Virus record (IMG/VR): IMGVR_UViG_3300042923_000752
Coordinates: 1-33,234 of that record
DNA length: 33,234 bases
Source: a virus
Taxonomy: Duplodnaviria > Caudoviricetes
Direction: 5' to 3' (one strand)
Each line of letters begins with the position of its first letter. The first letter of the stretch is position 1. A program made the position numbers and the translations under genes. Shown in pieces: positions 6,213-10,152 of the stretch. The notes under the pieces are model-generated. The model saw only the letters and a list, made by a program, of their open reading frames with translations, had not been told where the DNA came from and ran no database searches.

Positions 6213-6845
6213 GTGGATTTAACTTATTACAAGCCTACGGAGCTTGAATGCTGGTTGAATAATAAATACCTAGAAAACGGGATCTATCGCCCCTCCGACA
6301 TGAAAATTAAACGAATCGCAGCGATATTTGGTATTGAAGTACATCCGTTTACCGGAAGGTGTTTTGCTGATTGGCATGATAATGAAAACGGATATTTCAA
6401 TGCGATCATCGCACTAAATTACATGCTAGACGAAGAAACAAAACGCGAGCGCTTTTTTCATGAGCTATGTCATCCCCTTAAACATGTAGGATCTCAAAAC
6501 GAATTACCCGAATTAGCGAAGCAGCTCCAGGAGATTCAAGCATCACAGTTCCAACTCTACGCCGCTCTGCCGATCTACATGATCAAGGAATACATAGAAC
6601 AATGCTCAACTATCCAGATCCTCGAAAAAACACTTGCTGCTGCATTTTGTTTGCCTGAATCCCTTGTAAGGAGGCGATTACAACAAATCGAAAACAGGAT
6701 CTATTGGGGGCGAATTGAGTATTTACAAAAATCCCCTTCACCAAGAATTGTTATTACGAAGGAACATGTAAAGAGAGTCCAAGAAGAGTTTGGACGAAAG
6801 CGTCAAGAAAAAGAAGAAAAAGAGAGGATGATGAGAAATGGTTAA
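6213..6845 (+). CDS. ImmA/IrrE-family zinc metallopeptidase anti-repressor
   Basis: RERFFHELCH (HExxH) and QEIQASQFQLYAALP; start moved to GTG 6213 behind GAGGGGGG. Confidence 0.9.
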   Translation: MDLTYYKPTELECWLNNKYLENGIYRPSDMKIKRIAAIFGIEVHPFTGRCFADWHDNENGYFNAIIALNYMLDEETKRERFFHELCHPLKHVGSQNELPELAKQLQEIQASQFQLYAALPIYMIKEYIEQCSTIQILEKTLAAAFCLPESLVRRRLQQIENRIYWGRIEYLQKSPSPRIVITKEHVKRVQEEFGRKRQEKEEKERMMRNG

Positions 6846-7290
6846 AGTCGCAGTTTACTACGAGGAGCATCCCGAAACACTGGAAGTCGTACCGATGAAA
6901 ATGGTTGTTTATTTTGGGCGAGGGAAAATAAAATGGGACAAAAATTATTTTTATCTTGCCTTGACTACCCCTTTCAATCGCCAGCGCGTTGAAGACTTTG
7001 ATGCTGATATGATGTCGATAACAATTACTCAAGGAGAGATGGTACGAAATCCGGAGAAGGAAGCACAAATCGGGCCTTGCTTCGGTATATATCTCCCATA
7101 TTTGATTGAACGTCTTGAGAAAATGAAAGCAGACCGGGTAAATGAATTGGAACAACAAGGGTACTATGTAAACCCCGAGGAAGTTGAAAAAGACGATTAC
7201 ACTTCAGCCGAACAGTTTATCATCCAAATGGTTGATGTAGAAGAAGTGATGCAAATGGAAGATCTTGATCGCTTTTTTAAATGGAACTAA
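6838..7290 (+). CDS. Hypothetical acidic protein between immA and integrase
   Basis: 150 aa; overlaps immA stop by 8 nt. Confidence 0.7.
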   Translation: MVKVAVYYEEHPETLEVVPMKMVVYFGRGKIKWDKNYFYLALTTPFNRQRVEDFDADMMSITITQGEMVRNPEKEAQIGPCFGIYLPYLIERLEKMKADRVNELEQQGYYVNPEEVEKDDYTSAEQFIIQMVDVEEVMQMEDLDRFFKWN

Positions 7291-7308: not shown

Positions 7309-8763
7309 ATGCAGCCACTAGCGTACATTCGAGTAAGTACAGACGAGCAAGTTGAAGGGAACTCGTTGGAGGAACAGGAAGAGCGTCTTCGAGCTTACTG
7401 TATCACTTATGGCCTAGAAGAACCGGTATTTTACGTCGATGACGGTCGTAGTGCAAAAGACATGCGCCGCCCAGGTTTAACTAGTTTGCTTGAGGAAGCT
7501 AAAAAGGGGAAGGGCCGGATCGTCATCATCACAAAGATTGACCGCATATGCCGGAAGCTCCTTGATCTACTCAATCTCATTGAATATTTAGAAAAATATG
7601 AGTGCGAATTCGCTTCGGCTAGTGAAAAGTTTGATACGACAACACCGGCTGGTAGGATTACCCTTCAGGTACTTGGCGCCGTCGCTGAGTTTGAACGTGC
7701 GCGCGTCGCTGAGCGAGTCAAAGAAAATATGCTATCGCTTGCGAAAAAAGGCGAGAAAGTTATTACAAGGCCGTGCTATGGGTACGATGTTATAGACGGG
7801 ACTATGTTAATCAATTTCGAGGAAGCGCTTATTGTTCGTCAAATGGCAGAATGGGCCGTCAATGGGGAAGGCGGCCGGGGAATAGCGAAACGCTTGAATG
7901 AAATGGGTCTGAAAACAAAGGACGGCAACCAATGGCATGAGAAGATTGTGCGCGAACTTTTGAAACGCGAAACGCTAATTGGTAATTTTGTTTATAATAA
8001 AACTTATCGTAAAGGAACTCGAATTATCACCAGACCAGAAAGCGAATGGATTCGAATCGAGGAGCATCATGACGCTATTTTAGAAACAGAGACTTTCGAA
8101 ATAATTCAGCAGCAGTTTGAAGGGCGCAAAACCATTGGTCGCCACATCCGGAACGACACTTATCTGTTATCTGGATTGGTTCGTTGCGGTCATTGCGGAG
8201 CTTCAATGAACGGAAAAACACAAAAAAGCCGATCTAAGCGGAGTGATCAGCAAGACCCCTTTCATAAATATGCATGTGATGGGTACTTAAAAAAAGGGAA
8301 TTGCTTCTACCATCACGTCGACCGAGATGAACTAGAACGCCTGGTTATTAAGCGAATTACTGAGCTTGCATATGCGGCTCCTGGATCAATCCAAATTGTG
8401 CTAGCCAAACCGAAAGTCCCATCACTTGAAAAGGAATCGATTGTCGCAAAAATTGAACGTCTTGACAGGAGGATGCAAAAACAAATCGAAGCATACACAG
8501 ACGGGTTAATCACAGCGGATGCATTGAAAAGAGCTACTGAACAAGTCGAGGAAGACCGTAGGAGGCTTTCTGATACGTTGAAACAGTTAGGGGAAGGGGA
8601 TCAGTCTTCAGAACAGAAAAAGGTGCAGGAGACAGCTAAGAAGATACTAGGGGATGTGTTGTCGATTGATCGTATTAAAGCCAAGAATGCTATCCGGCAA
8701 GTTGTTCAATCTATCCGGATACAGAACAGCGAAATTGTGGAGCTTGCTTGGTTTTCAAACTGA
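7309..8763 (+). CDS. Large serine recombinase (phage integrase)
   Basis: YIRVST catalytic Ser, RPGL, KIDRICR, recombinase domain (PCYGY), Zn ribbon YLLSGLVRCGHCG...C...C, coiled coil; RBS AAGGAGGG. Confidence 0.97.
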   Translation: MQPLAYIRVSTDEQVEGNSLEEQEERLRAYCITYGLEEPVFYVDDGRSAKDMRRPGLTSLLEEAKKGKGRIVIITKIDRICRKLLDLLNLIEYLEKYECEFASASEKFDTTTPAGRITLQVLGAVAEFERARVAERVKENMLSLAKKGEKVITRPCYGYDVIDGTMLINFEEALIVRQMAEWAVNGEGGRGIAKRLNEMGLKTKDGNQWHEKIVRELLKRETLIGNFVYNKTYRKGTRIITRPESEWIRIEEHHDAILETETFEIIQQQFEGRKTIGRHIRNDTYLLSGLVRCGHCGASMNGKTQKSRSKRSDQQDPFHKYACDGYLKKGNCFYHHVDRDELERLVIKRITELAYAAPGSIQIVLAKPKVPSLEKESIVAKIERLDRRMQKQIEAYTDGLITADALKRATEQVEEDRRRLSDTLKQLGEGDQSSEQKKVQETAKKILGDVLSIDRIKAKNAIRQVVQSIRIQNSEIVELAWFSN

Positions 8764-8812
8764 TCTCTACTGAGATGTTCGGGAGACCGACTATCCCACA
8801 AGAGAGCCCCAT
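8752..8812. other. Predicted attP, with crossover near 8775-8780 at the end of the ychF homology
   Basis: Immediately after the integrase stop; the minus-strand YchF match stops abruptly after codon 12 (AAC, 8779-8777). Boundaries approximate. Confidence 0.7.
8777..8812 (-). pseudogene. ychF: Replacement 5' fragment of ychF (Obg-family ATPase), codons 1-12
   Basis: ATG GGG CTC TCT TGT GGG ATA GTC GGT CTC CCG AAC = MGLSCGIVGLPN; YchF N-termini read MxxxxGIVGLPNVGKST. RBS GAGGGGTG lies 8 nt upstream. Confidence 0.85.
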
Positions 8813-8853
8813 AATATAAACACCCCTCAATAATCTTGGCTTAATTCCATACA

Positions 8854-8882
8854 ATTATATATTAGCAACCTGTTATTCACAA
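8854..8882 (-). promoter_or_regulatory. sigmaA promoter driving the ychF fragment
   Basis: TTGTGA(8882-8877)-17-TATAAT(8859-8854). Confidence 0.75.
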
Positions 8883-8891
8883 CATACCCCG

Positions 8892-8940
8892 AAAATAAAG
8901 AAGCAGCTCGGGCGTTGAATAACGGAGCTGCTTACTTTTT
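8892..8940. terminator. Bidirectional Rho-independent terminator
   Basis: AAGCAGCTC(8901-8909)/GAGCTGCTT(8925-8933) with U-rich tails in both directions. Confidence 0.75.
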
Positions 8941-8960: not shown

Positions 8961-9368
8961 TTAGTTGCGGAACCCAAACATTCTACGCATACCTGTCGCT
9001 CTAGATCGCCTCCGAGCTTCTTTATGTATAAAGTCCTCAAATCGATTGAAGCTCGGATTTTCCCAAAATAAAAGTAAAATCGTATATCCGGGATCTAATA
9101 CCCACGGCTTTGCATGCTTTGTTTCAGGCTCACCTAATAATTCAATTAGAAACGGAACTATGCTTGCGTTAGGATCGGGACCAATATCGACAATCGATAT
9201 TATGAGGTGATTTTCTTGGTACGTAAAAAGGTAACTGACCCCATCGTCATCAATAAATTGCGACCTCCCTCCTCCGTTCCGTACGGAATCGATCGCAGTT
9301 CTGATCTTTACCTTAGTGCTCTTCGGTACACGACGAATCTTTGCTCGAACTGCAATTGTCTCCTCCAA
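8961..9368 (-). CDS. Hypothetical protein, predicted SOS-regulated
   Basis: 135 aa; TTG start with RBS AGGAG; own promoter, LexA box and terminator. Confidence 0.75.
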   Translation of the reverse strand: MEETIAVRAKIRRVPKSTKVKIRTAIDSVRNGGGRSQFIDDDGVSYLFTYQENHLIISIVDIGPDPNASIVPFLIELLGEPETKHAKPWVLDPGYTILLLFWENPSFNRFEDFIHKEARRRSRATGMRRMFGFRN

Positions 9369-9393
9369 CTAAATCATCTCCTAAAATATAATA

Positions 9394-9437
9394 GGAACAA
9401 TTGTTCCCATTATACATAGGGCTACTTAATTTTTCAA
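9394..9437 (-). promoter_or_regulatory. sigmaA promoter with LexA box at the transcription start
   Basis: TTGAAA(9437-9432)-17-TATAAT(9414-9409); perfect palindrome GGAACAATTGTTCC (GAAC-N4-GTTC) at 9394-9407. Confidence 0.75.
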
Positions 9438-9493
9438 CATGCATAAATAATGCGCATTTTTTATTGACATGCATAATTTATGCGTGTTATAAT
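9437..9493 (+). promoter_or_regulatory. hicAB promoter with two repeated palindromic operators
   Basis: TTGACA(9464-9469)-18-TATAAT(9488-9493) with TG extension; ACATGCATAAATAATGCG (9437-9454) and ACATGCATAATTTATGCG (9467-9484), 30 bp apart. Confidence 0.75.
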
Positions 9494-9517
9494 AAGATTA
9501 AGAAAGGAGGACAACGA

Positions 9518-9706
9518 TTGAAGAGTTACTCGTCTAGGGAACTAATCAAAATGGCTGAGTCAAAAGGTTGGTACTTTACACAAGCGGAAGGCAGTCATCA
9601 TCATTTCAGACATCCAACCTACAAACACAAACTCACAATCCCTCACCCTAGAAAAGACTTCAAGCCAAAAACATTAAGAAACATTCTAAAGGACATGGGG
9701 CCGTAA
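9518..9706 (+). CDS. hicA: HicA-family toxin (mRNA interferase)
   Basis: 62 aa from TTG 9518 behind AAAGGAGG; SSRELIK...GW...GSHHHFRHP...TIPHPRKD...TLRNILK. Confidence 0.93.
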   Translation: MKSYSSRELIKMAESKGWYFTQAEGSHHHFRHPTYKHKLTIPHPRKDFKPKTLRNILKDMGP

Positions 9707-9735
9707 GGCTCCTGTCCGAAAGGAGAGAATATAGA

Positions 9736-10152
9736 TTGGATAAATACGTGTTTCCAGCTTTGTTTGAATCAGAGGAAGGAGTACCAGGGTATACCGTATC
9801 ATTTCCTGATTTGCCCGGTTGTCATACAGAAGGCGATACGTTGGAAGAAGCGTTGACCATGGCACGTGAAGCGCTGGGGCTGCATTTGTACGGAATGGAG
9901 GAGGATGGAGACGAAATCCCCGTTGCTTCTGCTCCAGGAAAGCTACCACCGGTAGAGGAAGGCTTTTACACACTGATCGAGGTTAGAACGGGACCGGTCC
10001 GCGATAAGCAACTTAATAAGTCCGTGACCAAAAACGTCACGCTGCCGCGTTGGTTGGAGCTCGAAGCGACTAAGGCGGAATTGAATTTTTCACAAGTTTT
10101 GCAGCATGCGTTAAAGCAAGAACTTCGTATATTCGATAAGAATGCCAAATAA
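9736..10152 (+). CDS. hicB: HicB-family antitoxin
   Basis: YVFPALF...YTVSFPDLPGCHTEGDTLEEALTMAREAL...C-terminal RHH KNVTLPRWL...NFSQVLQ. Confidence 0.95.
   Translation: MDKYVFPALFESEEGVPGYTVSFPDLPGCHTEGDTLEEALTMAREALGLHLYGMEEDGDEIPVASAPGKLPPVEEGFYTLIEVRTGPVRDKQLNKSVTKNVTLPRWLELEATKAELNFSQVLQHALKQELRIFDKNAK

Follow-up and report, generated by a model that had tools for sequence, protein, structure and literature searches.

The viral record analyzed here (the window, 33,234 bp, which record G000 spans entirely) is the genome of an unintegrated temperate phage. With a probability of roughly 0.88, the site that follows its large serine integrase gene is the attP of this phage, the integrase likely cuts the ribosome-associated host gene ychF in codon 10, and one attP arm would leave a full-length ychF on phage signals. 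Judging from the sequence comparisons described below, ychF as the target and restoration of its reading frame are very probable, and use of the predicted phage promoter for ychF is moderately likely. Integration likely swaps the control region of ychF without destroying the gene. In the proposed mechanism, the serine integrase would cut host ychF within codon 10 at a CT core, and the phage arm would bring a predicted terminator, a promoter, a ribosome-binding site and nine in-frame codons, so that the integrated phage would leave a full-length ychF to be expressed from phage signals. Selection would keep ychF, a gene that appears to be non-essential yet relevant to fitness.

The genes of the window are ordered as replication and immunity genes (a DnaD-like loader, a repressor-like HTH protein and a metallo-protease), the integrase, hicAB, and the lysis, tail, neck and portal genes. 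The integrase gene (7309..8763, plus strand, with its stop codon at 8761-8763) encodes 484 aa with resolvase, recombinase and zinc-ribbon domains; PF00239, PF07508 and PF13408 all exceeded the Pfam cut-off, and phrog_95 was matched with an E value of 3e-116. The catalytic-serine region Y6-R8-V9-S10 was unchanged in 41 of 41 aligned integrase relatives. No family match was found in domain and profile searches for the 150-aa ORF (6838-7290) preceding the integrase gene. Upstream of the ychF stub, on the phage side, accessory genes (8961..10152) comprise a 135-aa ORF without known function (minus strand) and hicA-hicB (plus strand), and these run on into the lysis and tail genes. Because phage genes flank the integrase end on both sides, the site after the integrase is attP and not attL. 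Between 9401 and 11139, hicA-hicB and a 305-aa gene without known family occupy the space from attP to the lysin, where cargo is typically located. The tail genes of the window phage (Dit and tape-measure) are siphovirus-like. The same integrase-attP module is present in the G377 prophage (L318), whose tail genes, compared with the window at 13.6-27 kb, are by eye of the baseplate type.

The original prediction had placed on the minus strand, in this order, a terminator, TTGTGA-17-TATAAT, a ribosome-binding site, a ychF start and then antisense integrase sequence, and all of these elements were located. The predicted intrinsic terminator (8892..8933, minus strand), possibly bidirectional, consists of a hairpin at 8933-8901 and a T-rich run. 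The hairpin folds at -18.5 kcal/mol with a z value of -5.2 on the minus strand (none of 200 shuffles reached this stability) and a z value of -3.8 on the plus strand; a strict terminator scan of the region returned 0 sites and so missed it. The predicted sigma-A promoter TTGTGA-17-TATAAT (8854..8882, minus strand; TTGTGA at 8882-8877 and TATAAT at 8859-8854) shows 10 of 12 consensus matches and is the top of 4 consensus sites in 1 kb, where shuffles expect 1.7 +/- 1.4; the promoter match taken alone is poor evidence. The sequence TTGCTAATATATAATTG in the promoter region is common to the window and L008, a complete phage record with terminal repeats whose integrase is 78% identical to that of the window and whose attP has the same anatomy. 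A Shine-Dalgarno-like GAGGGGTG (8821..8828, minus strand) lies 8 nt ahead of an ATG (8812-8810) that opens MGLSCGIVGLPN on the minus strand, after which the reading enters the antisense integrase end. DNA coding for GIVGLP occurred once in the real window and 0 times in 300 first-order Markov resamples of it. The sole family match of the 33-aa ORF at the stub was to positions 1-13 of the YchF model TIGR00092, a weak match (E 0.12).

The attP itself is an imperfect dyad of ~56 bp (8757..8812) with its center at 8784-8785, 21 bp past the integrase stop. About this center, 15 of 25 positions in the arms are complementary, against 10 for the next best center, and the predicted fold of 8760-8840 pairs the arms about 8784-8785 too. 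The P arm (8786..8812, minus strand) contains the replacement ychF codons 1-9, MGLSCGIVG, and in five lysogens its counterpart continues in frame into the ychF body; TCTCT at 8805-8801 in this arm is mirrored by AGAGA at 8768-8764. The P' arm (8757..8783, minus strand) reads P-N-I-S-V-E by chance of frame and, after integration, would be expected to adjoin the host stub in attL. At its outer end it shares bases with the integrase stop codon, and in lysogens the same arm lies 3' of the host stub at attL. When phage arms were compared, an SD-like purine-rich stretch ahead of the ATG was seen by eye in all eight, and a -10-like hexamer stood 32-43 nt ahead of the ATG in 8/8, generally behind a hairpin, with the qualification that promoter picking, used without a shuffle control, returns a best site for any sequence. 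Three Brevibacillaceae phage arms match the promoter consensus at just 7-8/12 (with a TG extension). The promoter-like site aims antisense into the 3' end of int, as the phage promoter in attP and as the host ychF promoter in attL.

Lysogens of related phages had the arrangement expected for integration into the start codons of ychF with repair of the gene. In all five Paenibacillaceae or Brevibacillaceae genomes with an intact stub (G053, G260, G377, G408 and G411, with integrases 51-54% identical to that of the window), the integrase lies beside a ychF stub and the other prophage end is fused to the ychF body, leaving a single full-length, stop-free ychF with a non-host start. The restored genes encode 365-366 aa without stops and scored 525-538 bits against the TIGR00092 cut-off of 279 (5/5 genomes). 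The YchF P-loop GxxNxGKS is intact in the restored product, and the G377 product aligned end to end with the solved YchF 1jal (E 3e-146). The intact ychF lies 40.2-58.6 kb from the stub, in the same orientation, in four genomes and on another contig in G053; by eye, the G377 interval contains integrase, repressor-like, replication, tail and lysin genes. Stub translations are MALKAGIVGLP or MGASCGIVGLP, with host genes upstream, among them genes for GNAT and NAD(P)H-binding proteins at the true attL sites. The intact genes start with MPLSCG (two genomes), MLSCG, MGFSTG or MGFATG, with phage-side genes upstream.

The starts and flanks of these genes were also compared with those of non-lysogens. 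The MALKA start was found in 50 of 52 matched genomes of the G053 genus; the other two, G053 and G260, are lysogens, as is the one genome left unmatched, G377. Likewise, 28 of 30 Brevibacillaceae ychF loci begin MGASCGIVGLPNVG. DNA upstream of attL aligned to non-lysogen relatives and the alignment ended at most ~11 bp past the core in all five lysogens; the aligned stretch covered all of the 600 bp examined in three lysogens, the greater part in G053 and ~115 bp in G408. DNA at attR aligned to non-lysogen relatives onward into the ychF gene. Since the stub starts match those of non-lysogens and the alignments break close to the core, it is the phage end that provides the working ychF with its start.

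No lysogen of the window phage itself was found, the nearest mapped lysogens being those with integrases 51-54% identical. Among public sequencing runs, the region was present in one DNA run, which may be the source sample and contains the attP form only, and no RNA run with the region was listed. The contigs of the DNA run showed no joint or loose end at the core, a result that is uninformative on lysogens because contigs drop rare forms. Elsewhere, ychF at G457:C14:5102 (L317, L320) starts with MGFSTG behind phage-end genes and forms a sixth attR; a matching integrase or stub was not found in this 3.6-Mb assembly. At G376:C33:648059 (L314), an orphan MPLSCGIVGLP stub with TATAAT upstream stands without an adjoining integrase; the ychF of G376 is intact on another contig with the host start MALKAG, an observation that counts against the proposed mechanism.

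The suggestion that lysogens carry altered N-terminal residues held in part. The lysogen ychF differs from that of the host in residues 2-5 only, but the new start is not phage-specific. An xLSCG start (at most 1 mismatch) was found in 26 of 401 Paenibacillaceae genomes, which consisted of 3 lysogens, 1 orphan stub and 22 non-lysogens in which it is native to an ordinary ychF, and xLSCG was rejected as a phage signature. The window P arm matches 23/27 bases in the best non-lysogen xLSCG hosts. This similarity points loosely to xLSCG-type Paenibacillaceae as the host, and the host of the window phage may see one changed residue or none. The placement of ychF upstream of rpsF-ssb-rpsR, known from B. 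subtilis, was recovered in 5/5 Brevibacillaceae loci but in 0/8 Paenibacillaceae loci (by eye), where prfA or other genes lie 3' of ychF (RF-1 was confirmed for L019). Recent capture of the phage promoter from the current host was rejected, because within a given lysogen the two promoter regions, phage and host, resemble each other too little to be close copies (z 1.8-3.4).

The position of the crossover had been predicted within 8765-8812, and it was mapped inside this interval. We infer strongly that it falls at Leu10 of GIVGLP, with a 2-bp core, CT, formed by the first two bases of this codon (8784..8785, minus strand, read 8785-8784). Six dinucleotide positions, the first two bases of each GIVGLP codon, are common to all five attL/attR pairs, and among these Leu10 alone is the dyad center of both natural attP sites (window and L008). 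At the Leu10 center, complementary pairs number 15/25 and 14/25 for the natural attP sites; the five reconstructed sites have 12-18 and the attB sites 6-8. The dyad score summed over 7 attP sites was 100 at the Leu10 center versus 27-64 at the other 36 offsets, where 5 of the 7 sites were reconstructed by joining at the center under test. In single sites, a rival offset scored higher in G377 (offset 10, 14 versus 12), tied in G053 (offset 28, 12) and came close in L008 (offset 11, 13 versus 14).

With the crossover at Leu10, the phage would supply nine codons and the 2-bp core instead of the twelve codons proposed originally, and P11-N12 would end up at attL. G6-I7-V8-G9 is invariant in 8/8 phage arms, with two or three synonymous codons for each residue, and the P' arm has drifted (N12T in 3/10, a stop at codon 15 in 2/10). 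This drift, set against the fixed GIVG of the P arm, is consistent with the supply of nine codons. Conservation of GIVG could also stem from integrase binding, with G9 and P11 forming an inner dyad, and dyad symmetry accounts for part of the constraint on the inner codons. TCTCT, found as a mirrored pair at positions -20 to -16 of the two arms in 6/7 attP sites, overlies codons 3-4; from the structure of serine integrases, we infer that it is an attP-specific integrase-binding motif. Codons 3-4 would thus have a double use, and for this reason the replaced residues would differ from those of the host. Strand exchange by serine integrases requires a matching core dinucleotide. The 2-bp core would have to match the host Leu10 codon, and hosts with TTG or TTA at codon 10 would consequently resist integration of the window phage; in 28 non-lysogen loci of one genus, this codon was CTN in 18 and TTR in 10.

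The phage-type promoter of G411 also precedes ychF in four genomes without an intact prophage (G407, G419, G427 and G438), giving 5 of 61 Brevibacillaceae genomes including G411, and this retention indirectly favors use of the promoter. Between the usual upstream gene and ychF, inserts of ~2.3-3 kb were found in G407, G419 and G427 (L327-L329) and one of ~5 kb in G438 (L332), and parts of these inserts match the right end of the G411 prophage at 78-90% identity. In a search that left out G438, the native ychF promoter pattern was absent genome-wide (at most 3 mismatches) from G407, G419 and G427 and present in both controls. G438 has lost the attL stub and keeps a 75% identical C-terminal integrase piece in the expected place. 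Because the remnant junctions are shared, the four genomes probably derive from one ancestral event. Host-type codons, MGASCG, stand behind the phage-type promoter in these genomes, which is unexplained by simple decay. A different decayed element, of 4.9 kb, was seen at G446:C1:2120275-2125200 (L316, L048): its integrase is broken, its ychF stub is frameshifted, and 47 bp of host upstream sequence recur at both of its ends. The ychF of this genome retains a host-type promoter.

The remnants point to a way in which a core gene may come permanently under a phage-derived promoter. In B. subtilis, yyaF-rpsF-ssb-rpsR is a two-promoter operon. Competent cells contain more YyaF and more SsbA protein. 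We raise only tentatively, and regard as rather unlikely, the idea that ychF, together in Brevibacillus perhaps with rpsF-ssb-rpsR, is freed by the phage promoter from host control by growth phase, stress or competence. Lysogeny would then act as a reversible promoter switch on a translation ATPase that is conserved universally, and some Brevibacillus lineages would have fixed the phage promoter once the prophage and their own promoter had been lost.

The same observations bear on the possibility that the site is right and the repair incidental, with the ychF-like codons serving as the attB-like inner arms of the integrase and the promoter serving the phage, for example, as antisense to int mRNA. 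The inner dyad, GG-N-core-N-CC, does fix parts of G9 and P11, P11 is kept in 10/10 P' arms though it is never translated with ychF, and the attP promoter points into the int 3' end, head-on in the free phage. However, the in-frame ATG, and an SD-like stretch outside the dyad, are kept in 8/8 phage arms, third positions vary while GIVG stays fixed and the untranslated arm gains N-to-T changes and stops, and phage-type promoters outlast the integrase in 4 genomes. We consider purely incidental repair improbable; the phage-serving and ychF-serving roles of the arm and promoter are not exclusive.

Integrase loci were collected from host genomes and viral records. An integrase at E <= 1e-90 was found in 14 of the 401 genomes of the Paenibacillaceae family and 9 of the 61 of the Brevibacillaceae family, the family names following the named seed genomes of each set; 3 candidates were scored per genome in the 401-genome search, so the lysogen counts are lower bounds. 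Of the 24 loci inspected, 5 carried an intact ychF stub beside the integrase end, 1 had a frameshifted stub (G446) and 18 had other flanks. The GIVGLP motif lay beside the integrase stop in 2 of the first 17 integrase loci (L008 and L001), and a host ychF stub at attL was also present in L058, L067 and L001. Scans of viral and metagenome contigs gave the motif in L060 and L067 among at least 160 loci, both records having also been reached otherwise. L055 and L057 (among 5 pattern matches) and L225 (among 4) were rejected as unrelated, the first two being unrelated ORFs. No second stub was found beyond attL in five provirus records, which are trimmed, and no integrase above 33% identity was present among the best 30 of 791 matches in an annotated phage collection. 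L001 (NZ_JBEOSM010000016.1), labeled Microbacterium, consists of a Paenibacillus-type attL and integrase followed by high-GC actinobacterial sequence, and this contig is likely chimeric or contaminated.

A quick maximum-likelihood tree built from 47 integrases placed all 10 ychF-labeled rows in one 12-row clade (SH-aLRT 94). The remaining 2 rows of this clade are records trimmed at the integrase stop, and 0 of the other 35 rows carried the ychF label. The predicted attB thus stood for one integrase clade but not for distant integrases (39-48% identity), which were found at other genes. Sister integrases (L002, L004-L007, L029-L038, L044-L049) adjoin an Mn-catalase gene, which we take to be cotJC-like, at two positions and in both orientations, and the L039 integrase adjoins an Mg-chelatase gene. 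L034, L037, L066 and L069 were labeled ABC substrate-binding by eye. In G363, the same integrase occurs twice, 36 kb apart, one copy being flanked by host and the other by phage sequence.

Target switching is common in the wider group, where relatives 39-48% identical adjoin the Mn-catalase or Mg-chelatase gene, and G376 has an orphan stub; the stub in the window might accordingly be a relic of an integrase that has since moved to another target. We regard this as very unlikely, as the dyad arms, frame and signals are all intact in the window and L008 and ychF is adjoined by 10/10 clade members with a readable flank. That the window is instead an attL, with a host stub and host promoter, or a misassembly is scarcely credible even though MGLSCG resembles native xLSCG starts and the arm matches 23/27 bases in some non-lysogen hosts, because hicAB, lysis and tail genes lie upstream of the stub where true attL stubs have host genes, a public contig covers 7471-9493 with zero differences (it may come from the source sample), and L008, a complete phage, repeats the anatomy.

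If an attP that repairs ychF is accepted as the preferred reading, an enzyme with a 2-bp core could use a universally conserved gene by writing the start of that gene into its own attP, and one DNA arm would act as both integrase-binding site and coding sequence. Pairs of attB and attP with a predicted core are now given for an uncharacterized integrase clade, and ychF is a candidate non-disruptive landing site for genetic tools in Paenibacillus and Brevibacillus. A single synonymous codon (Leu10, CTN versus TTR) is predicted to set the hosts that a given phage can lysogenize. PMC2375889 describes ychF as non-essential and its loss as slowing pneumococcal growth. In passages of PMC8138138, E. 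coli without ychF loses in competition yet withstands stress better, and YchF levels drop under stress; given these effects on fitness and stress, control of the ychF promoter could matter.

Several known systems share parts of this arrangement. SPbeta at spsM and A118 at comK are serine-integrase phages that disrupt their target gene. Disruption is also described in passages on the M. abscessus serine integrases of MabI and MabJ and on Bxb1 at groEL1 (PMC8092301), and serine-recombinase IMEs are described in part of PMC5704250 as disrupting dispensable genes. As far as these passages go, MabI/MabJ, Bxb1 and the IMEs share the enzyme class, the short core and insertion inside an ORF with the window clade; they disrupt dispensable genes until excision, whereas the window clade would keep the gene whole while integrated. 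The MabA1 phages, in passages of PMC8092301, replace a 5' end at tRNA-Met, but with an RNA gene as target, a tyrosine integrase and a long identical core.

Two systems concern ychF itself. In Actinomycetota pipolins, large serine recombinases are placed at ychF from gene context in the passages of PMC11551731 and 10.1101/2024.05.22.595293; these elements share the target gene and recombinase class of the window and differ in phylum and element type, and the passages, which assign the site by gene context, give no crossover position, replacement start or promoter. A pneumococcal defective prophage upstream of ychF alters the ychF promoter on integration and excision (passages of PMC6375853, PMC8637289 and PMC10383233), with a measured change in ychF mRNA and adhesion (PMC6375853, PMC8637289). 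In contrast to the window, its site as described there is intergenic, in the -35 region, with 14-26 bp repeats, and the coding sequence is neither cut nor replaced. A literature search, with subscription papers mostly outside it, found no report of a Bacillota phage inside ychF. The term ychF was absent from the main text and 8 supplementary files of Durrant et al. (PMC10083194), whose full database may lie elsewhere, and from the main text of ProBord (PMC13626063).

The closest parallel is with the SXT/R391 ICEs and the dusA islands. The integrases of both are of the tyrosine class. SXT/R391 ICEs, at the prfC 5' end, and dusA islands such as IMEVchUSA3 supply a promoter and an N-terminus, according to passages of 10.1101/2021.06.18.448947. 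The window clade resembles them, so far as described there, in that recombination falls within the 5' coding region of a host gene and an in-frame start is supplied. The SXT/R391 and dusA elements are conjugative or mobilizable, are described from Gammaproteobacteria and have longer homology cores, whereas the window is a tailed phage with a serine integrase, a 2-bp core and a coding arm doubling as an integrase-binding dyad; its serine integrase, virion and lysis genes and ychF target place it outside both families. Replacement of a 5' end (SXT/prfC, dusA) and ychF as a serine-recombinase site (pipolins) are thus already known, and what appears new in the present comparisons is the repair of a conserved protein gene, from its 5' side, by a phage with a serine integrase, along with signs that the promoter of such a phage can outlive it.
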